A stretch of DNA of 64,000 nt from an uncultured bacterium. GTDB taxonomy: Bacteria; Babelota; Babeliae; Babelales; Babelaceae. Positions 8,428-39,752 of this stretch are shown here, in pieces. Under the pieces are notes generated by a model that worked only from the letters and a program-made list of their open reading frames with translations, made no database searches and had not been told where the DNA came from. Each line of letters starts with the position of its first letter. Within the stretch, counting starts at the first letter, position 1. The position numbers and the translations under genes are program-made. Where the stretch lies: positions 8,022 through 72,021 of the forward strand of contig CAWKFG010000002.1 in assembly GCA_963848965.1 (NCBI GenBank), given 5' to 3'.

Positions 8428-10218
8428 ATGTCAAAAGAACTGTTAAAACCTCAGCAGTTCCGCCGAGCGGAACTACGATTTGATGATGAATCATTTCAGC
8501 TGAATGAACAACAAAAAGGAGAGCTCTCTGCGCTGTATGAAGGTACACTCGACAGATTTAAGCCAGGCAGTATCATTAAGGGCACCGTAATTAAGGCAAG
8601 CGCAGAAGGTGTTCTCGTAGATATTGACTATAAATCCGATGGCTTAATTGCTGCATACGAGTTTTCTGAACATGAGCTTAAACGATTAGCTCCAGGATCA
8701 GAAATTGAAGTTATGCTCGATGAGCTTGAAAATAGTGATGGTAATGTCATCTTGTCTTACGAAAAAGCGAAAGCTATGAAGGCATGGGACTCTATCATGA
8801 AGCTCTACGAGGAAAACAAGCCAGTAGAAGGTATTGTTACTCATAAGGTTAAGGGCGGCTTAAGCGTTGATATTGGTATTCCTGCGTTCTTACCAGGATC
8901 CCAAGTAGATATTCAACGAGTTACCGACTTTGATCAGTTTGTAGGACAACCTATTACGGCAAGTATCATAAAGATTAATCCAAAGCGTGGTAATGTTATT
9001 ATTTCACGCCGTAAATTTCTCAATGAACAACGAGCTGAAACTCGTAAAAAGATTCTTGAAACCTTACAACCAGGTTCAGTTATTCAAGGAACCGTTAAAA
9101 ATATCACTAACTACGGTGTATTCATCGATATTGGTGGCGTAGACGGACTCCTGCATATTACTGATATGACCTGGGGTCGTATTGCTCACCCAAGTGAACT
9201 AGTACGTATTGGTGATACTGTTACAGTAAAAGTCCTTTCATTCGATAAGGTTAATGAAAAGATCTCACTTGGTATGAAGCAACTTTCACACAATCCGTGG
9301 GAAGAACTAGATCCTTCAGTACAAATAGGCTCTCGCATAAAAGGTACTATCTCAAGTATTACCGATTATGGTCTCTTTGTAGAAGTGCAAGCAGGCGTTG
9401 AAGGCTTAGTACATATTTCTGAAATATCATGGACCGATCGTATTAACGATCTTCATAAGCACTTTAAGGTAGGTGAAACTATCGAAGCGCTTGTTGTATC
9501 CTTAGATAAAGAAAATAGACGTATGTCACTTAGTATCAAGCAGCTTGAGAAGAACCCATGGGATGCAATTAGTGAACAGTACGAAATTGGGCAAAAGATC
9601 TCCGGTAAAGTAAGTAATGTTACTGAATTTGGTATCTTTGTACAACTTGCTCCTGGTATTGATGGCCTTGTTCATATCTCAGACTTCTCATGGACTGAGC
9701 ATATTGAACATCCAGCAGATCGTTACAAAAAAGGTGACGAAGTTGAAGCTGTCATTATCGGCATTAATAAGCAAAATAAAAAGATTTCACTTGGTATTAA
9801 ACAATTGACTCCTAATCCATGGGAAGAGATTGAAAAGAAATATCCAGTAGGATCTACCATTGAAGGTGAAGTTTCAAAAATCACTAATTTTGGTGCATTT
9901 GTAAAACTTCCAACAGGTATTGAAGGCCTCGTTCACATCTCTGAACTTTCTGGTGATAATGTTGAGAAAGTGGAAGATTTTCTCAAAGTTGGCCAAGTAG
10001 CTACGTTCAAGGTCATCAAAGTAAGTCCAGAAGAGCATAAGCTTGGCTTAAGCTTAAAGACTGAAGATGAAGGTGAAAAGAAAGCTAAGAAAGAAAAAGC
10101 ACCTGCTAAAAAAGAGAAACGATCTGAAATACCTGCACAACCAAAACAGAAATCTCAGTTGCAACTAGAGCTTGAAAAGCTCTCTCGCCAAAAAGAAGAA
10201 GACACAAGCAACGAGTAA
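8428..10218 (+). CDS. rpsA: 30S ribosomal protein S1
   Basis: Six S1 repeats (AFLPGSQ, DGLLHITD, EGLVHISE etc.). Confidence 0.97.
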   Translation: MSKELLKPQQFRRAELRFDDESFQLNEQQKGELSALYEGTLDRFKPGSIIKGTVIKASAEGVLVDIDYKSDGLIAAYEFSEHELKRLAPGSEIEVMLDELENSDGNVILSYEKAKAMKAWDSIMKLYEENKPVEGIVTHKVKGGLSVDIGIPAFLPGSQVDIQRVTDFDQFVGQPITASIIKINPKRGNVIISRRKFLNEQRAETRKKILETLQPGSVIQGTVKNITNYGVFIDIGGVDGLLHITDMTWGRIAHPSELVRIGDTVTVKVLSFDKVNEKISLGMKQLSHNPWEELDPSVQIGSRIKGTISSITDYGLFVEVQAGVEGLVHISEISWTDRINDLHKHFKVGETIEALVVSLDKENRRMSLSIKQLEKNPWDAISEQYEIGQKISGKVSNVTEFGIFVQLAPGIDGLVHISDFSWTEHIEHPADRYKKGDEVEAVIIGINKQNKKISLGIKQLTPNPWEEIEKKYPVGSTIEGEVSKITNFGAFVKLPTGIEGLVHISELSGDNVEKVEDFLKVGQVATFKVIKVSPEEHKLGLSLKTEDEGEKKAKKEKAPAKKEKRSEIPAQPKQKSQLQLELEKLSRQKEEDTSNE

Positions 10219-24904: not shown

Positions 24905-25150
24905 TCCTATCCCTTTTTATAATGCTTCTATAAACTGTTTTCGGCAGATTACTATAAAATTACAAGAGATGCAACTTGAGACCGGACAATTAAGAAGGCT
25001 ATTTACAAATCTGCCGGGTTTTTAGGTAATAGACTTGGGTAATTCTTAAGATCTAACTTTAAAGTTGCACACGATCCCATCTTCTCGTTTTACTGGGAAT
25101 GTGCTATTATTAAATTACAAGGATAATTTTTAAGTATGACAGGTAAGGCT

Positions 25151-27745
25151 ATGGATTCACTGAAAGTTCGACAAAAATTTTTTCACTATTTTACTGAGCG
25201 AGGACACACGCAGGTACCAAGCTCTTCACTTATACCTGCACAAGACCCAACGTTGCTTTTTACTAATGCAGGAATGAATCAATTTAAAGATCTTTTTTTA
25301 GGCAAAGAGACACGCAGTTATAAACGAGCTGTCTCTATTCAAAAATGTATTCGTGCTGGCGGAAAGCATAATGACCTAGAAAATGTAGGGTTCACCAAAC
25401 GCCATCTCACATTCTTTGAAATGATGGGCAACTTCTCTTTTGGAGACTATTTTAAGCGCGAAGCAATACAGTACGCGTGGGAATTTCTTACCAAAGAGAT
25501 AGGATTACCTGCAGATAAACTTTATGCAAGTATTTACTATAAAGATGATGAAGCCTATACCATATGGCATAAGGAGATTGGTCTACCAGAAAACCGCATC
25601 GTACGACTTGGTGAACAAGATAACTTCTGGCAGATGGGTGATACCGGACCATGCGGTCCTTGTTCAGAAATTTATATCGATCGCGGTATAGGATATTCGT
25701 GTGAAGGAAAAGAATGTGCACCTGGCTGTTCTTGTGATAGATTCTTAGAGATCTGGAATCTCGTATTTATGCAATATGATAGACAATCAGATGGTACTGA
25801 TAAACCTCTCAAGCAAACGGGTGTTGATACTGGTATGGGTCTTGAACGGCTGTGTGCTATCATACAAGAGAAAGATTCCGTCTACGATACTGATCTTTTT
25901 GCTCCACTTATACAAGCAGTTGAGCAGCTTACGGGCATCATCTATTGCTCTGCATCTGGTGAAATACAAGCTGCATTTCGAGTTCTTGCAGATCATATTC
26001 GTTCATCTGCTTTTGCTATTGCCGATGGCTGTACCCCTTCAAATGAAGGACGCGGCTATGTGCTCAGAAAGATTATAAGAAGAGCTGCGCTCTTTGCTCA
26101 AAAACTTCATAAAAAGAATATATTTCCTGATTTAGCACCAGCTCTCATTAAAGCAATGAGCCCTCTATACCCCGAGCTTCAAACACATGCGATGGTGATT
26201 TCTTCTATTCTTAAAAGTGAAGTAGAAAAATTCTCTGCAAACCTTATTAATGGACAACAGATTCTTGCAAAATATTTTGAAGAAAATCACACATCAAAAA
26301 CGATAGCAGGAGCTCAGGCATTTAAACTTTATGATACGTATGGTTTTCCTCTTGAACTCACAAAAGTTATTGCCTATGAGCATGGGTTTACCGTTGATAC
26401 AGAGGGATTTGAAGATCTTATGGAACAGCAACGGATACAATCTGGTAAAAAGCAAGCACAAGAAGAATGCTCTCTTGACGAGTCCGTATATACACACTTT
26501 ACGGGATACGATGAACATGTTACACAGACTGTTATCACTGCACTTCTTGTCAATAATAAGCCTATCGATAAAGTGGAACCTGGTACGCTTGTCTCTGTTG
26601 TCACAGAAAAGTCTCCCTTCTATGTTGAATGTGGTGGACAAATAAGTGACCAAGGATTTATAAAAGTTCATGATAAAGAAGCAAAACTCTTAGGCCTTAA
26701 AAAGATTCATAAAGCAATTGCAGCTGACATTGAAGCACCAAGCACATTGCATGTAGGTGATACCGCTACGTTAGTAGTTGACAGTCCTAGCCGTATCAAT
26801 ACTATGAAAAACCACACAGCAACACACCTATTACAGGCTGCTTTAATTGCTATTGTTGGCAAAGGAGTAAAGCAATCAGGATCTGTTGTTACACCTGATT
26901 ATCTACGATTTGACTTTACATACCATGAAAATTTAACCCCTGAGCAAATAACCTCTATTGAGAACCTTGTTAATGATAAAATAATGCACAATATCCCAGT
27001 GCGAGTAACAGAGACAACGCTCAAAGACGCTCAAGAGCGTGGTGTTATCGCATTCTTTGGTGAAAAGTATAATCCTGAAAAAGTTCGTGTCGTTGAAGTT
27101 CCTAGTTTTTCAGCAGAGCTTTGCGGTGGTACCCATGTACGAGCTACCGGTGATATAGGTGCTTTTAAAATTACCGAGGTATCTTCTCTTTCAGCAGGTA
27201 ACAGAAGAATTGTTGCACTTACAGGACCTGGTGCTCTTGCACTGTTCCAGCAAACATTCAGTTTAGCCAAAAGCCTTAGTCAAGAATTTAAAGTACCTCT
27301 TGAGAGCGTGGCTGACGCTGTACAAAAACAGAAAGAGCAGCTAAAATCTGCAAAAACCTATGCAAGAGATCTTAAAAAGCAACTGTATAAACTTCAAATG
27401 CCTGAGTGGGCTACCAAAATTCAAAACTTTGGCTCAGTTCCCTTTCTTTATCTAGCAATTAAAGATGCATCTGCAGAAGATCTTAAAGAGATTGCACAAG
27501 AATTTATGCGAGTACAACCGGGACTCTATTTCTTAGTTGGCCAAGAAGGAGCACGAGTACATTATTTTGCATCGCTTGCTCCGCAGCTTGCACAAAAAGT
27601 AAATCTTCAAGCATTTAATACCTGGCTCAAAGAGCATGGTCTACGAGGAGGAGTAAGCGGAACAACTCTTCAGGGAGGTGCACCCACTTTAGATCTTGAT
27701 CTTGAATATGGTATTAAAAAATGGTTACATGATCATATACAATAA
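25151..27745 (+). CDS. alaS: Alanine--tRNA ligase
   Basis: DPTLLFTNAGM, FEMMGNFSFGDYFK, DTGMGLER, HTATHLL, ELCGGTH. Confidence 0.98.
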   Translation: MDSLKVRQKFFHYFTERGHTQVPSSSLIPAQDPTLLFTNAGMNQFKDLFLGKETRSYKRAVSIQKCIRAGGKHNDLENVGFTKRHLTFFEMMGNFSFGDYFKREAIQYAWEFLTKEIGLPADKLYASIYYKDDEAYTIWHKEIGLPENRIVRLGEQDNFWQMGDTGPCGPCSEIYIDRGIGYSCEGKECAPGCSCDRFLEIWNLVFMQYDRQSDGTDKPLKQTGVDTGMGLERLCAIIQEKDSVYDTDLFAPLIQAVEQLTGIIYCSASGEIQAAFRVLADHIRSSAFAIADGCTPSNEGRGYVLRKIIRRAALFAQKLHKKNIFPDLAPALIKAMSPLYPELQTHAMVISSILKSEVEKFSANLINGQQILAKYFEENHTSKTIAGAQAFKLYDTYGFPLELTKVIAYEHGFTVDTEGFEDLMEQQRIQSGKKQAQEECSLDESVYTHFTGYDEHVTQTVITALLVNNKPIDKVEPGTLVSVVTEKSPFYVECGGQISDQGFIKVHDKEAKLLGLKKIHKAIAADIEAPSTLHVGDTATLVVDSPSRINTMKNHTATHLLQAALIAIVGKGVKQSGSVVTPDYLRFDFTYHENLTPEQITSIENLVNDKIMHNIPVRVTETTLKDAQERGVIAFFGEKYNPEKVRVVEVPSFSAELCGGTHVRATGDIGAFKITEVSSLSAGNRRIVALTGPGALALFQQTFSLAKSLSQEFKVPLESVADAVQKQKEQLKSAKTYARDLKKQLYKLQMPEWATKIQNFGSVPFLYLAIKDASAEDLKEIAQEFMRVQPGLYFLVGQEGARVHYFASLAPQLAQKVNLQAFNTWLKEHGLRGGVSGTTLQGGAPTLDLDLEYGIKKWLHDHIQ

Positions 27746-27748
27746 AAA

Positions 27749-27771
27749 TAAGGCCGTTTTATGCGGCCTTA
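27749..27771. terminator. Hairpin between convergent alaS and pth
   Basis: taaggccg...cggcctta. Confidence 0.6.
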
Positions 27772-27781
27772 GAGAACACTG

Positions 27782-28315
27782 TTACTCATACAGTTTTTCG
27801 ATCATATCAGCTGCAGTCTCTATAAGACGCTCTACTTCCTCTGGCCGTTCTTTAAAGTTTTGAAGTACATACTGAGGAACTTCTTCTTTAACTGCCGGAC
27901 GGCCTATACCAAACCTTAGGCGTGTAAATTGATCTGAGAGATAAGAGATAAGTGATTTAAGGCCATTATGTCCTCGGGCACTTCCTCCTTTGCGCAAAGC
28001 CATTTTACCAAAAGGAAATTCCAGTTCGTCATGCACTACTAAAATATTATCCGCACGTATACCAGTCTTTGCAAAATAGGGAATCACTGCTCCTGAATTA
28101 TTCATAAATGTCTGCGGCTTTACCAAAGTAATAGAAACAGTTCCAATCTGTATCTGAGCGAGCTCCATTTTATCTTTAGAGCGCCATTGGCCACCAAAAC
28201 GCTGTGCAAGAGCATCTACAACAAGAAAGCCAATATTATGTCTTGTAAACTTATAAGCAGGCCCTGGGTTACCAAGGCCTATAATAACTTTAGGAGGTGT
28301 AATAGGTGTTTCCAT
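27782..28315 (-). CDS. pth: Peptidyl-tRNA hydrolase
   Basis: GLGNPG, TRHNIGF, KPQTFMN, HDEL, GHNGLKS. Confidence 0.97.
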   Translation of the reverse strand: METPITPPKVIIGLGNPGPAYKFTRHNIGFLVVDALAQRFGGQWRSKDKMELAQIQIGTVSITLVKPQTFMNNSGAVIPYFAKTGIRADNILVVHDELEFPFGKMALRKGGSARGHNGLKSLISYLSDQFTRLRFGIGRPAVKEEVPQYVLQNFKERPEEVERLIETAADMIEKLYE

Positions 28316-31755: not shown

Positions 31756-32514
31756 TCATTTATGATTTGCTGCAAATTTGTGCCTTAAAAATTGCAAAAT
31801 TTTTCCTTCAATAGCTTCATCTGTACGACTAGGTAAACTGAACTTAAACTTTTGCTGTACTGGTTTGAGGTTATTCATAAATCGTTGTGATACAATAGTT
31901 GCTGTTTGGCGTAATATACCTTCTTTTATATCAGTAGGCAGTTCATTAAAACTTTTTTTGTCATACTCAGCTTTTTCAATAAATGGTAAGGCAACTAGCA
32001 TAGCCTCTGAAGTTAAAAACCGTAGCGCCCAGTCTTGTAGCGTAGTACCAACTGGTGTTTTATGCTCTTTTAAATGAGTAATTAAAGTGTCATAAGCAGT
32101 CTCCAATTCAGGTGTTAAAGTATCTACAGGAACCTGAAAGACGCTTTCTGGATTTATTACTTCAACAATAAGATTGCGAAGTTCAATAAGATCCTTGTCT
32201 TGAGCACCAGCTTTTGCAAATTTTTTTATAAAGCCGTTTGCTACCTCATCAGCTTTGGTTTTAAGCTCAGAATCAGAAAGTACTCTACTAAAAGGCATCT
32301 GCGATTCATCTACAATATACTTTATACTCGCTGGTGTAAGCAAGTTACGCAAATGTTCTGAAAACTCTGGGTGTGGTGTCCTTTTTTTCCACTCTAAAAA
32401 AGCAGTATCTGCTTCTTTGTTTTTCTCTTCAATAGTAAGCACCCCTGGCTGTGCATATGCAAGCACAGGAACTATACTTATTATAAAAAACATATATCTT
32501 CTTAAATTAATCAT
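31756..32514 (-). CDS. Secreted hypothetical protein
   Basis: Signal peptide ending AYA-Q; 252 aa. Confidence 0.65.
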   Translation of the reverse strand: MINLRRYMFFIISIVPVLAYAQPGVLTIEEKNKEADTAFLEWKKRTPHPEFSEHLRNLLTPASIKYIVDESQMPFSRVLSDSELKTKADEVANGFIKKFAKAGAQDKDLIELRNLIVEVINPESVFQVPVDTLTPELETAYDTLITHLKEHKTPVGTTLQDWALRFLTSEAMLVALPFIEKAEYDKKSFNELPTDIKEGILRQTATIVSQRFMNNLKPVQQKFKFSLPSRTDEAIEGKILQFLRHKFAANHK

Positions 32515-32660: not shown

Positions 32661-32972
32661 TCATTTTTTGCTCTTAAAAATTTCTTGGGGCTCTTTTTCA
32701 AGAGTTGCGAGAAGATGCGCTAAGCTAGATAAAGTTAAGTTAGCTTCACCACGTCTAATCTTAGCAACTTGGACTGGAGTTGAATCTAACCGTCTTACAA
32801 GTTCATTAAAGCCAATATTATGCTTACTCATATAATCTTCCATAGCAGATGAGATTGATTCTTGTAATAAGGACAAGAATCTAATTTCACGTTCTGCTCG
32901 TTCTTCAATTTCAGCAATTTCATTTTTGCTTAATCTCTTTTCAAGATATTCTTGAAAACTTTTTGTTTTCAT
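32661..32972 (-). CDS. HigA-like XRE HTH antitoxin
   Basis: ELVRRLDSTPVQVAKIRRGEANLTLSSL; downstream of the toxin. Confidence 0.82.
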   Translation of the reverse strand: MKTKSFQEYLEKRLSKNEIAEIEERAEREIRFLSLLQESISSAMEDYMSKHNIGFNELVRRLDSTPVQVAKIRRGEANLTLSSLAHLLATLEKEPQEIFKSKK

Positions 32973-32984
32973 AAATGTCCTTTT

Positions 32985-33305
32985 CTATAACTGTGAAAGC
33001 CGCTTACGTGCAATCCTTATATCCCTTTCTTGTTCTGATTTATTACCTGCAGCAAGCAAAATAATTATATCACCACCAGAAAATGAATAATAAATTCTAT
33101 AACCATACTTAAGTTCTCGTAATTCAAAAAGACCCTTCTTTAAAGGTCTACTATGTGGAAGTTTTAACGCATTGCCAGATTTTTCCAAGATTTTTATTAC
33201 AGCAGCAACCTCCTTAAACTGTTCATCCGTTAGCGAGTTAAACCATTTTTCAATAGGATTGTTCTTTTTTGCCCCATCCCAGTACTCAATTTTCCATCTC
33301 TTCAT
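32985..33305 (-). CDS. RelE/HigB (Gp49-like) toxin
   Basis: PHSRPLKKGLFELRE...YRIYY...IILLAAG.K..Q.RDI..AR. Confidence 0.88.
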   Translation of the reverse strand: MKRWKIEYWDGAKKNNPIEKWFNSLTDEQFKEVAAVIKILEKSGNALKLPHSRPLKKGLFELRELKYGYRIYYSFSGGDIIILLAAGNKSEQERDIRIARKRLSQL

Positions 33306-33379: not shown

Positions 33380-33503
33380 CTCATCCTTTTAAAACGTTTG
33401 AGTTTTATGAAAATGTTTGGAACGGAAAAGAATTGAAAAAGTGTGATAGCTAAAGTTTAAGAAAATCTATGAAAGGAGAAAAAGAAACATATAAAAAAAT
33501 TTA

Positions 33504-33868
33504 GGAGGCGCCTGAATTACAAACTCATCTTGCCGAACCACCGTACTTAAACCACTCCAAGTATAGTCTTTGTGCTTGCACTCTAGTGTAGTCGCAAAGA
33601 CTCGATTCATACTAGAGACTAGGTTTATGATCCCTCAAGTTATACACCTAAAAATTCACTTGAGGTCCTCTTGATACCTTATGAGCATACAGGCCAAGAG
33701 AATGCCTTCGAGCTCATAAGTGCAGCGACCGCTTTGTGCCGATGCCCGTGGAGTCACAGCTTCCACGCGTTACTTGACCCATGTATTACGAGCGCAGGGG
33801 TCATCTTACTCGACTTGCGTTTTAAGTATGCGCGGCAGCCTTAAGCCCTATGGCTTATGAGCGCCTCC
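33504..33868 (-). ncRNA. Divergent tmRNA paralog (tmRNA-like RNA with remodelled tRNA-like and mRNA-like domains)
   Basis: Closing stem GGAGGCGC/GCGCCUCC, helix 2, pk1 (CGAG/CUCG plus UGACCC/GGGUCA) and three tandem H-type pseudoknots; local similarity to the adjacent ssrA; 365 nt. Confidence 0.85.
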
Positions 33869-33913
33869 GCTTTTTTCTTTATATGTCAAAGACAAACTTA
33901 TCTTACTATTCTT

Positions 33914-33943
33914 ACTATAATTTATTTTAAATCAAATTGTCAA
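33914..33943 (-). promoter_or_regulatory. Promoter of the tmRNA-like RNA
   Basis: TTGACA-N18-TATAGT. Confidence 0.7.
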
Positions 33944-34101: not shown

Positions 34102-34132
34102 TGTCCGCCGAAGCTCGCAGAGCGAAGGAGGA
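34102..34132. repeat. REP-like palindrome abutting the tmRNA 3' end
   Basis: gtccgccgaagctcgcagagcgaaggagga; its reverse complement closely matches 2297-2324. Confidence 0.75.
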
Positions 34133-34136
34133 AGGT

Positions 34137-34497
34137 TGGTGGAGGCGATGGGAATCGAACCCATGTCCGCACTACAATCGACTTAAAGCGCTACATGCTT
34201 AGTCTTTATCAATTCTTATAAAAATACTTAAAGACAGGTATTTTTTATAAGCTTGGTTTGTGTTCATTCAAGCTACAGACCAAGGTAACCTTGCTTGACG
34301 TCCTATAAAGGGTAATACGAGCCTTATCGATCTATAGGCATATCAATGAGACAAGTGTGTTGCCGCTATTAAGCGAAAGCAACAGCAGATTGTGCTGTAT
34401 TTGCACTTATTGTTTGACCATTTATTTTACGAGTACTCAGTCAAAGCTCGGCATGCTCTTCAAGCGTCTTATAACACGTCGAAGCCAGTACGCCCCC
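34137..34497 (-). ncRNA. ssrA: Transfer-messenger RNA; tag (A)ANTAQSAVAFA**
   Basis: 5' GGGGGCG...UUCGAC; 3' GGGUUCGAUUCCCAUCGCCUCCACCA; G3.U pair; UAAGU|GCA resume site. Confidence 0.97.
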
Positions 34498-34550: not shown

Positions 34551-34769
34551 TTTAAAACCCTGTACCAAAAGCACGTATTTTACCTTCTAACGCTCGAATA
34601 AGGTTTCCTATAAACTATTATTAATGCCTTATAGTCAAAGAAGGGCTCTTCATTAAAAAGACTCTTGACTGAATTATTCTTTTCAGTATACTAATATTTG
34701 AAATTAAATTGTTTTTATAGAACTTTCTTAGTTTTTTATTTATATTTATCATTATATAATGAGATTGTC

Positions 34770-36053
34770 ATGAAAAAATTACTTTTCTATGCCCTTATCT
34801 ATGCAGTTGGAAGCTGCTCTTTCTTTATGTATTCTATGGAAAACCCTTTTGATGACTTTAATGTAGACCTTATAGACTTTGGATACATTGATAACGTTGA
34901 TAATTTTTCTCTAGAAAGTTTTATTGACCTTAGTCCTTCAGAAGATCTTTCGCACAAAAAAAGGCCATATAATGCCGAAATTATTCAACAAGATGCTCTT
35001 GTTCAAGAAAGTCCTCAAAAAAAGTTAAAAATCGATGGTTCAGTTGCTCTTCTTTTAAAAGAATTACAAATGCTTGAAGAGAAGCATAGAGCAGTACGTG
35101 CAAATCTTATAGAAGAGGCAAAAAAGCTTGCATTACGATGCCAGGTTAACTTTGATTTGATACGTCCTTTAGATTTAAACTATAACAACCTTCCCTTATA
35201 CGAAGGCGTATCAAAACTTTCACAAGATCTTCTTTTAAAAAGTAAAGATGCTCCTTTTCTTTTAACATTACAACCAAAGGCTCGTGCAGAACTTCTTACT
35301 GCACTCACAGTAAAAACAGAGATTATTATAAAAGAAGTGACTGTTCTAGAAAAAGTCCTTGAATGTATTAGCACTGGATCTACATTCACACATACAGTTT
35401 ATCCGCAGCCCGAAACAGAGCTTCTTGATGTTATTCAGCTTGATCAGCTTCTTAAAGAATCATTACGGTGCTCTCGAGATTCAGAACGATCAAGAGACTC
35501 TTGGCTTACAAAATTGAAGTGGTTAATCTCTTTATATTCATTTAATATCTCTAAAAAATTTGCTCGCCAATTAGGTGAAGAATCTCATAATCCATTACAC
35601 GAAGTGTTTCAAAAGACTCTCGGTAATGCACTTATTGTACATGCAAAACATCATAGCATTACTTATAAAGACTTTTGCACGCTTTTAAAATTTATTATGC
35701 AAGATAGTCCTTTAGCTGCACCATTTATTGCTCGTGTAGGAGAATTTTTAGCATCAATACATGCAACACACACGAAACTTGGACTTATTAAAAGTCTTAT
35801 TAGCCAAACGTTAAAAGCAAGCATTAATGCAGCTGAAACTAAAGAGGTATTTACCTGTGCTATTTGTTATGAAGCACTTTCAGTATCTTCTAAACAATCT
35901 CTTTCTCAAGATGATTTCCAAGGTATTGTTACTCCTGCCTGCGCTTGTCAAAATTATTACCATAAAGCCTGTCTTGAAAAATGGATAGCAAACGGCTGCC
36001 CTATTTGCAAACGAAAAGTTGGTATTCAACCTATTATTAATCCTCAATCATAG
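34770..36053 (+). CDS. Secreted protein with C-terminal RING finger (putative E3 ubiquitin ligase effector)
   Basis: Signal peptide; CAIC...CAC..YYHKAC...W...CPIC. Confidence 0.82.
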   Translation: MKKLLFYALIYAVGSCSFFMYSMENPFDDFNVDLIDFGYIDNVDNFSLESFIDLSPSEDLSHKKRPYNAEIIQQDALVQESPQKKLKIDGSVALLLKELQMLEEKHRAVRANLIEEAKKLALRCQVNFDLIRPLDLNYNNLPLYEGVSKLSQDLLLKSKDAPFLLTLQPKARAELLTALTVKTEIIIKEVTVLEKVLECISTGSTFTHTVYPQPETELLDVIQLDQLLKESLRCSRDSERSRDSWLTKLKWLISLYSFNISKKFARQLGEESHNPLHEVFQKTLGNALIVHAKHHSITYKDFCTLLKFIMQDSPLAAPFIARVGEFLASIHATHTKLGLIKSLISQTLKASINAAETKEVFTCAICYEALSVSSKQSLSQDDFQGIVTPACACQNYYHKACLEKWIANGCPICKRKVGIQPIINPQS

Positions 36054-39090: not shown

Positions 39091-39543
39091 CTAAAACTTT
39101 CCACGAAGTTCTCTGCGAGTTTCTCGTGCAATATCCCGTTCTCTAAGCTCTTCCTTCTTTGCATGAGCTTTTTTATGTTTGCATAATCCAAGCTCTACTT
39201 TAACTTTTCCTTTATCATTAAAATACAGCTTTAAAGGAACAAGTGTCACTCCTTTACGAGAGATATCTCCTACAATTCTCGTAAGCTCTCGTCGATGCAC
39301 TAAGAGTTTGCGAGTACGACGAGCTAGTTCTTCACTCTTAGAATAGGCATGAGAGTACGGTGGAATATAACAGTTAATGAGATTAAGCTCATTCTGATGA
39401 ATAGTAGCAAATGAACCAGGAAGTGAAACCTGGTTTGCTCGTAAAGACTTTACTTCATCGCCAGTAAGTACAATACCAGTTTCAATGCGGTCTAAAATTT
39501 CATAATCATGAAAAGCTTTTTTATTTTGAGCAATAATTTTCAT
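39091..39543 (-). CDS. smpB: SsrA-binding protein
   Basis: NKKAFHDYEI, GIVLTGDEVKSLR, RKLLVH, TLVPLKLY. Confidence 0.96.
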   Translation of the reverse strand: MKIIAQNKKAFHDYEILDRIETGIVLTGDEVKSLRANQVSLPGSFATIHQNELNLINCYIPPYSHAYSKSEELARRTRKLLVHRRELTRIVGDISRKGVTLVPLKLYFNDKGKVKVELGLCKHKKAHAKKEELRERDIARETRRELRGKF

Positions 39544-39752
39544 ACAACCTTTAAACAAAAAACTCTGAGCACTTTCTAAAAGCAGTAGCTAGATTATAAC
39601 AAAACAATATTACAGATAAAAGCCGTTTTTTTATTAGTATAACAGAGATTCAGTAGGAAATAAACTAACGCCCATTTCTATTTATTGACAAATAAGAACT
39701 TATTAATATATAATTTGTATAAAAACAAGTTTATTTTAAAATGAGAAACGTT

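Follow-up and report, generated by a model that had tools for sequence, protein, structure and literature searches.

A 64,000-nucleotide (nt) stretch of contig CAWKFG010000002.1 from an uncultured bacterium of the family Babelaceae (assembly GCA_963848965.1; genome G000, genus g1), hereafter the window, contains two genes related to transfer-messenger RNA (tmRNA) in tandem on the minus strand. The first is canonical ssrA (34137-34497, 361 nt), which scored 182.5 bits with the Rfam tmRNA model and for which ARAGORN reports the tag ANTAQSAVAFA. The second, a paralog of 365 nt (33504-33868), lies 268 nt downstream on the same strand, is colinear with ssrA, retains both strands of the terminal helix P1 and is 53% identical to its neighbor. 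Comparison of the paralog with its orthologs indicates that it lacks the features that define a functional tmRNA, although it evidently descends from one. The reading that we favor, with slightly better than an even chance of being correct, is that the gene specifies a tmRNA-derived RNA that is neither alanylated nor a template for a tag and that would act through the retained ring of pseudoknots, possibly by binding to S1, a ribosomal protein, or to 30S subunits.

The relationship with tmRNA was evaluated by searches in both directions. The Rfam tmRNA model (RF00023) covers positions 33542-33830 of the window (model positions 33-332) with a score of 38 bits, the gathering score being 47, and an E value of 1.5e-13 in a search of 801 bases. 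A profile of the paralogs finds the canonical tmRNAs of the same loci with E values from 6.6e-14 to 1.7e-4. These matches place the tmRNA homology of the paralog beyond chance. The paralog has no Rfam hit at the gathering threshold and is not called by ARAGORN, and no Rfam family besides tmRNA reached significance in the region. The minimum free energy of the RNA is -126.6 kcal/mol with a z score of -3.41 against shuffles.

The departures from tmRNA begin at P1. The 5' strand of the paralog, GGAGGCG (33862-33868, minus strand), has A at position 3 where ssrA has G, while the 3' strand, CGCCUCC (33504-33510, minus strand), has the ssrA sequence unchanged and places U70 opposite A3; the ssrA stem GGGGGCG/CGCCUCC contains the pair G3.U70. 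All 13 full-length paralogs, which come from two genera and from metagenomes, start with GGAG[G/A]CG and finish with CG[C/T]CUCC, so that A3-U70 is present in every copy. P1 is 100% paired and the sole change in the stem is compensatory (G5-C68 to A5-U68 in the ortholog of genome G024), a near-invariance that argues for selection on the helix. The canonical genes read GGGGGCG...CGCCUCC-ACCA in 12 of 12 loci with G3.U70 throughout, a pair that every ssrA sequence is said to retain (PMC3968760). The stem of the paralog is followed by UAAA and then a run of U, where ssrA has ACCA; the trailer UAAAUUUUUUUAUAUGUU (33486-33503, minus strand) contains no CCA, and its U-run may end transcription. CCA is encoded in none of the 13 paralogs, the 3' tails of which are UAAA, AUAA, AGCA, AUCU, GAAA, AUCG, AACA, ACAA, UUCU, CACA, AGAG, ACUA and AACA, and the discriminator is A, U, G or C. 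All 33 tRNA genes reported by ARAGORN in this genome encode CCA, as does ssrA, and tRNA-Ala(GGC) has G3.U70. Since these genes follow the rules of the organism, the missing CCA and the A-U pair of the paralog are departures from them. The G3.U70 pair is the identity element for AlaRS, and by these identity rules the paralog RNA would not be charged by the enzyme. One full AlaRS gene was found in the genome, and it lies in the window (25136-27745, plus strand); a second was not found.

It is very improbable that the paralog is still a rescue RNA that is trimmed, supplied with CCA, charged by a relaxed AlaRS or another synthetase and used without a canonical tag. The genome encodes one match to PolyA_pol (PF01743), the family to which CCA-adding enzymes belong, as well as RNase P RNA, and the leader of the paralog resembles that of ssrA in architecture; for human mitochondria, AlaRS recognition independent of G3.U70 is reported (PMC6451123). 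A charged RNA is difficult to reconcile with a discriminator that can be any of the four bases among the 13 copies and with a tRNA-Ala that keeps G3.U70 in a genome with one AlaRS found, and the losses of the elbow and of the tag region described below argue in the same direction. As a separate observation, a trailer-like sequence stands directly after approximately 10 of the 33 tRNA genes (for example gtcttcgc, accttcgc and gcctacgc) and after ssrA (accttcct, 34129-34136). This trailer, which is not present at the paralog, may be a signal for 3' processing or termination.

The rest of the tRNA-like domain is also altered. On the D side, the hairpin UAAGCC-AUAG-GGCUUA (33842-33857, minus strand; RNA positions 12-27) replaces the D-loop motif of tmRNA, which is UACUGGCUUCGACG in ssrA. 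The motif UA[C/A]UGGCUUCGACG is kept in 12 of 12 ssrA genes; the paralogs have a variable hairpin in a region that is the least conserved of the molecule (majority fraction 0.33) and varies in sequence and length among orthologs. On the T side, the paralog reads AUGAGUUUGUAAUUCAGG as opposed to AUGGGUUCGAUUCCCAU in ssrA and forms a plain hairpin, UGAGUU-UGU-AAUUCA (33513-33527, minus strand), that lacks the T-loop motif. A stem of 6-9 base pairs (bp), mostly 6-8 bp, closing a loop of 3-5 nt is found here in 13 of 13 copies; this helix (helix 14 of the structure described below) is 92.3% paired with changes on both sides at 3 pairs, and the sequence covaries. The A-U pair at position 3, the UAAA after the stem, the altered T-arm and the D-side hairpin had all been noted in the original prediction, which was made from the letters of the window, and each was located as described. 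In the paralog of G052 (L024 1444-1826) an extra D-side insertion of about 20 nt forms a second hairpin, and the region evidently tolerates expansion.

SmpB binds the elbow of the tRNA-like domain. Because the elbow is gone, binding of SmpB to the paralog and delivery by EF-Tu are unlikely, and entry into the ribosomal A site would thus be excluded. The same loss bears on an explanation that we consider quite unlikely, namely that the paralog titrates SmpB or trans-translation as proposed for the RNA of mycobacteriophage DS6A. In its favor are a P1 nearly identical to that of ssrA and almost invariant (0.99), a single SmpB gene 4.6 kb away (39091-39558, minus strand; one PF01668 match at C2:47124-47555, corresponding to window positions 39103-39534), with no second SmpB found in the genome, and the precedent of the DS6A RNA (PMC4131195). 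The D-loop motif and T-loop that form the elbow are nevertheless lost in 13 of 13 copies.

The part of tmRNA that serves as message is replaced as well. A single-stranded linker, AAGUAACG (33768-33775, minus strand), which is AGUUAUG in most orthologs, occupies the position of the stretch before the tmRNA resume codon and has a majority fraction of 0.91 (alignment columns 113-119). Hairpin A, CGUGGA-loop-UCCACG (33747-33767, minus strand; RNA positions 102-122), follows PK1, the first pseudoknot, and the linker, and lies over the would-be resume and tag region; 5 of its 6 pairs (helices 7 and 8) are changed on both sides. Hairpin B, GCAUCGG...CGCUGC (33722-33745, minus strand), lies at the site of the remaining tag frame and helix 5 of tmRNA and consists of 9 pairs (helix 9) that are 99.1% paired. 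No reading frame is conserved across the paralogs: the hairpin loops differ in length by amounts not divisible by three, a stop interrupts the frame in G024, and the ortholog peptides have in common just an ending dictated by the stem of PK2. Without a single-stranded resume region and without a frame, the paralog would be unable to tag proteins. The hairpin after PK1 and the two paralog frames, NAWKL and RGSCDSTGIGTKRSLHL, each followed by a stop, had been reported in the original prediction and were reproduced exactly; its claim that no tag is added is strengthened by the covariation of the hairpin over the would-be resume region and the fate of the frame in the orthologs. A rescue RNA of the kind considered above would have to resume translation on this paired region.

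The body of the molecule was examined by comparative folding. RNAalifold applied to ten sequences gave 79 pairs, 39 of them with compensatory changes. A hand-written structure, extended by the stems that cross in PK1 and in PK2, was counted on the 13 aligned full-length copies and comprises 95 pairs in 14 helices. Standard pairs are formed in 93.3% of cells, compared with 33-44% in a slid control in which the 3' partners were moved by 1-3 columns, and at 52 of the 95 pairs both sides have changed. Five measures were compared with 500 shuffles, none of which reached any of them. These fold controls are somewhat overstated, since the copies share ancestry and were themselves the source of the structure, but the margin is still very large.

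The long helix P2 extends from the end of P1 to the pseudoknot ring, its 5' strand (33813-33839, minus strand) pairing with the 3' strand (33532-33562, minus strand), and 20 of its 23 pairs (helices 2-4) are changed on both sides. PK1 (33776-33812, minus strand) is formed by CGAG...CUCG crossing GACCC...GGGUC, helices 5 and 6, which are 98.5-98.7% paired. In PK2 (33666-33720, minus strand; helices 10 and 11) the stem CUUAUGAGC/GCUCAUAAG closes a loop, UCUCUUG, that pairs with CAAGAGG downstream, and 8 of the 18 pairs are changed on both sides. PK3 (33619-33665, minus strand) consists of CCUCAAGU/ACUUGAGG crossing UUAGGU/ACCUAG, with 7 of 7 pairs of helix 12 changed on both sides, and PK4 (33566-33617, minus strand; helix 13) of CUCUAGU/ACUAGAG crossing GUCUUUG/CAAAGAC. 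Alignment is poor at PK3 and at the first stem of PK4, where the sequences are wholly different between species; the crossing helices of both can be drawn in most of the 13 copies when these are taken sequence by sequence. Ranked by majority fraction, the order is P1 (0.99), linker (0.91), PK2 (0.88), PK1 (0.83), hairpin B (0.82) and PK3 (0.56). Judged from the alignment, P1, P2, all four pseudoknots, the pair of new hairpins and a four-way junction where P1 joins the fold are under strong purifying selection, consistent with the prediction that the pseudoknot ring is retained, now with many compensatory changes in P2 and PK1-PK4. Two further structural candidates were set aside. The sequences flanking the paralog in this genome only (33469-33503 and 33869-33903) can form about 14 A/U-rich pairs that extend P1 (-12.3 kcal/mol, z score -2.6); this leader-trailer pairing was rejected as a general feature, the other 12 copies showing no conservation of it. 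An RNAduplex calculation of an interaction between the paralog and ssrA merely echoed the homologous stems and was regarded as meaningless.

The original prediction had allowed for orthologs that keep G3.U70 and CCA, with this copy a case of lineage-specific decay. The opposite is seen, with A3-U70 in 13 of 13 copies and an encoded CCA in 0 of 13. Because the orthologs share the rewiring, the hairpin covaries and the ring is conserved, the sequences identify the rewiring as ancestral and maintained, not lineage-specific decay. That the paralog is a non-functional relic, either a slowly decaying duplicate of ssrA or the scar of a mobile element at the ssrA locus, is scarcely credible. Duplicate and fragmentary ssrA calls are known (PMC4131195), and the paralog evolves faster than ssrA. 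A relic is nonetheless contradicted by the covariation (52 of 95 pairs compensatory, 93% of cells paired); the copies are full length, have a promoter in 13 of 13 cases and occur in each of the 10 informative genomes from the two genera, and no integrase domain was found among the 11 neighboring open reading frames (ORFs) scanned.

Distribution was determined in a GTDB sample of the family comprising 41 genomes, namely this genome, 10 of genus g11 and 30 others. BLAST with the paralog at E <= 0.01 returned 11 of the 41: this genome, 9 of the 10 g11 genomes and a 24-nt match in G015. The last was rejected as a copy after R1, a covariance model of the paralog core with 159 positions, did not confirm it. 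R1 matched 10 of the 41 genomes (this genome and the same nine of g11) with 143-185 bits and none of the 30 others. The g11 exception, G047, is 67% complete and its assembly also lacks ssrA, so that 9 of 9 informative g11 genomes are positive. In 10 of 10 genomes the copy is downstream of ssrA on the same strand, and 101-755 nt separate the two genes in the 12 loci where both are present. In a sample of the phylum, searched with strict filters and 19 candidates scored per genome, R1 matched 5 of 151 genomes, all of g1 or g11, and none of the other 146, which comprise 16 of family f1 and 130 from 17 other families. A pattern scan of one genome per species (approximately 185,000 species) yielded 12 stretches, 9 of which are the known g11 genomes; the remaining 3 had no match to R1. 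The same type of scan on metagenome contigs yielded 25 stretches, 4 with matches to R1 (143-178 bits), of which 2 have ssrA upstream, and 21 without; on viral contigs it yielded none.

The search was extended with nhmmer --max and a profile of the 13 paralog sequences to 30 ssrA loci of other Dependentiae genomes, including G014 and G015. All hits at E <= 0.3 fell on the canonical tmRNA and no second copy was found within approximately 1.5 kb, while the positive control was found with an E value of 4e-97. An Rfam search at E 0.001 of 28 ssrA loci from other genomes of the order itself missed its positive control, the paralog of G010 (L012). For the cultured Dependentiae member Chromulinavorax a single tmRNA is listed (PMC6561590). 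Two tmRNAs in Hydrogenivirga were ascribed by the authors to a mixed assembly (PMC4227106). On the comparative evidence, the paralog is best described as a structurally constrained RNA gene that derives from ssrA and is inherited vertically.

The paralog has a predicted promoter of its own and a short, ssrA-like leader. The sigma-70-type sequence TTGACA-18 nt-TATAGT (33914-33943, minus strand) ends 45 nt upstream of G1. Each of the 13 paralogs has the pattern TTGAC[AT]-18/19 nt-TAnnnT ending 24-45 nt upstream of G1, and this arrangement recurs 22-43 nt upstream of canonical ssrA in 11 of 11 genes. In metatranscriptome run X2, a 200-nt contig aligns with positions 33539-33738 with 15 differences (92.5% identical, depth 11.7) and originates from a relative; a 171-nt contig of the run aligns with ssrA with 3 differences at a depth of 7.9, and the flanks are uncovered. 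These contigs hint at expression of the paralog at a level similar to that of ssrA. At the 3' end, a U-run follows directly in this window, and inspection of the trailers by eye revealed a stem-loop and U-run approximately 10-15 nt past the paralog in G010, G049, G052 and G051.

The neighborhood downstream suggests an alternative in which the paralog is linked in cis to the next gene, as the structured 5' part of the mRNA for a signal-peptide protein of about 250 residues, with a role in processing, stability or regulation and a likeness to tRNAs co-transcribed with mRNAs. The gene in this window (31756-32514, minus strand) encodes 252 residues with a signal-peptide-like N-terminus and no Pfam match. 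In 11 of 13 loci the gene after the RNA encodes an ortholog of this secreted-type protein, in 6 of 13 it starts 14-30 nt past P1 with no visible terminator, and within the family the protein largely shares the distribution of the RNA, being found in this genome, in 7 of the 10 g11 genomes and, weakly, in G014 of one other genus. Shared descent by itself would, however, produce co-distribution within one clade, the protein used as query has no match in G048 and G046, both of which carry the RNA, a stem-loop and U-run separates the RNA from the gene in four orthologs, and in this window a toxin-antitoxin pair intervenes. The cis arrangement therefore seems unlikely to us. The intervening pair consists of an ORF with a Cro/C1-type helix-turn-helix (32661-32972, minus strand) and a Gp49/HigB-like toxin ORF (32985-33305, minus strand; PF05973), between the 252-residue gene and the paralog. 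It looks like an insertion in this genome, because no such pair is directly downstream in the other 12 loci. Expression of HigB reportedly leads to cleavage of tmRNA in M. tuberculosis, according to one paper.

The favored reading, an uncharged and tag-less RNA acting through its ring, envisages that ssrA was duplicated in tandem in an ancestor shared by two genera of protist-parasitic Dependentiae, after which the paralog would have lost both functions of tmRNA, the tRNA part and the mRNA part, and kept the scaffold. The RNA would act in trans via the parts that were kept best, PK1, the linker, hairpin B and PK2, which correspond to the tmRNA body. The tmRNA body wraps the head of the 30S subunit in ribosome structures, and S1 is to our knowledge the sole protein partner reported for it; the six-domain S1 encoded in the window (8557-10059) is a candidate partner. 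We tentatively suggest, while leaning against rather than toward it, that the paralog imitates the tmRNA body and binds S1 or 30S. Such a mimic or decoy might tune the availability of S1 or 30S, or rescue, and would not perform rescue itself. A more elaborate form, which is possible and on balance doubtful, is a neofunctionalised, stable 'ring RNA' that selection has kept from alanylation, SmpB and EF-Tu and in which the ring and linker would bind S1 or the 30S head. Retention of A3-U70 could be understood if a chargeable copy without a tag frame were harmful by poisoning rescue. Without such harm, occasional restoration of G3 through gene conversion from ssrA would be expected, and selection specifically against G at position 3 may operate. 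A search of this genome, which is 88.7% complete, for RNase R or RNase II with an RNB domain found neither, a result that weakens the idea of a decoy for RNase R.

Several observations weigh against the favored reading. The paralog changes faster than ssrA, the mean pairwise identities being 0.667 and 0.770, respectively, and is the more conserved of the two in just 1 of 66 pairs. Post-transcriptional addition of CCA is possible, given the CCA-adding-family enzyme encoded in the genome. The proposal of S1 or 30S binding derives from the literature and from which parts are conserved. In the 6 of 13 loci where the downstream gene begins within 14-30 nt and no terminator was seen by eye, the paralog could belong to the transcript of that gene. 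Two other RNA runs, X3 and X4, cover ssrA and not the paralog; RNA libraries may contain DNA, and the runs are assembled contigs in which missing cover proves nothing.

The paralog shares with canonical one-piece tmRNA a colinear arrangement, a 7-bp P1, a long P2, PK1 before and PK2-PK4 after the center, its length (365 versus 361 nt) and the layout of promoter and leader. It differs in A3-U70, the lack of an encoded CCA, the variable discriminator and the absence of T-loop and D-loop motifs, and in the two hairpins that stand in for the resume codon, the tag frame and helix 5. The survey by Hudson, Lau and Williams (2014; PMC4131195) describes the DS6A RNA as a tRNA-like domain only and discusses inhibitors composed of that domain. 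Both RNAs would be tmRNA derivatives incapable of full trans-translation that may titrate a partner. The DS6A RNA keeps the tRNA-like domain without the body, whereas the paralog keeps the body with the tRNA-like domain dismantled, and is chromosomal, in tandem with ssrA and vertically inherited. The survey (PMC4131195) also lists second and third ssrA alleles, pseudogenes lacking ends, fragments in islands and duplicates rejected for poor AlaRS features. These have in common with the paralog the presence of additional tmRNA-related sequence near ssrA; as presented there, they are working alleles or truncated and decaying pieces, unlike a full-length copy with heavy covariation in two genera. 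Two-piece tmRNAs, mentioned in PMC3968760, illustrate that tmRNA architecture can be remodelled over evolution. They keep alanylation and the tag frame and replace the standard gene, whereas the paralog has a colinear layout, occurs alongside ssrA and retains neither. In a full-text literature search, covering papers without their supplements, no report of a tmRNA paralog that is conserved and non-alanylatable was found.

The tmRNA gene is considered near-universal and usually single-copy, and PK2-PK4 are regarded mainly as folding aids. Selection on the whole ring across two genera, in the absence of the tRNA and mRNA parts, would imply that the ring can function alone. If the more elaborate 'ring RNA' form is correct, the paralog would be the first known case of a tmRNA body with a function of its own, and would represent a novel type of regulator directed at the ribosome, in a bacterium that is an obligate intracellular parasite; it might, for instance, adjust rescue or keep ribosomes parked. 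The gene would also provide a natural separation-of-function variant for asking what the tmRNA body binds, a matter relevant to ribosome rescue and to RNA evolution. For annotation, it is of practical relevance that the paralog escapes both ARAGORN and Rfam at its gathering threshold.

Further observations concern canonical ssrA and its surroundings. In G048 the canonical gene (L022 949-1326) has an ARAGORN tag of 30 residues, ANLDTGCCTYAARQLTLKSLSNLFVECANW, without the usual Ala-rich end; the ssrA tag of its close relative G010 ends in SAAAFA, and the G048 tag is either a possible assembly indel or a real frame change. Genes for translation quality control share the window with ssrA and the paralog, encoding S1, AlaRS, peptidyl-tRNA hydrolase and SmpB (8557-10059, 25136-28315 and 39091-39558). 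Directly upstream of ssrA, an ORF of 451 residues (34698-36053, plus strand) has RING-finger matches below the cut-off (23 bits against 27-31) and may encode a eukaryote-like effector.

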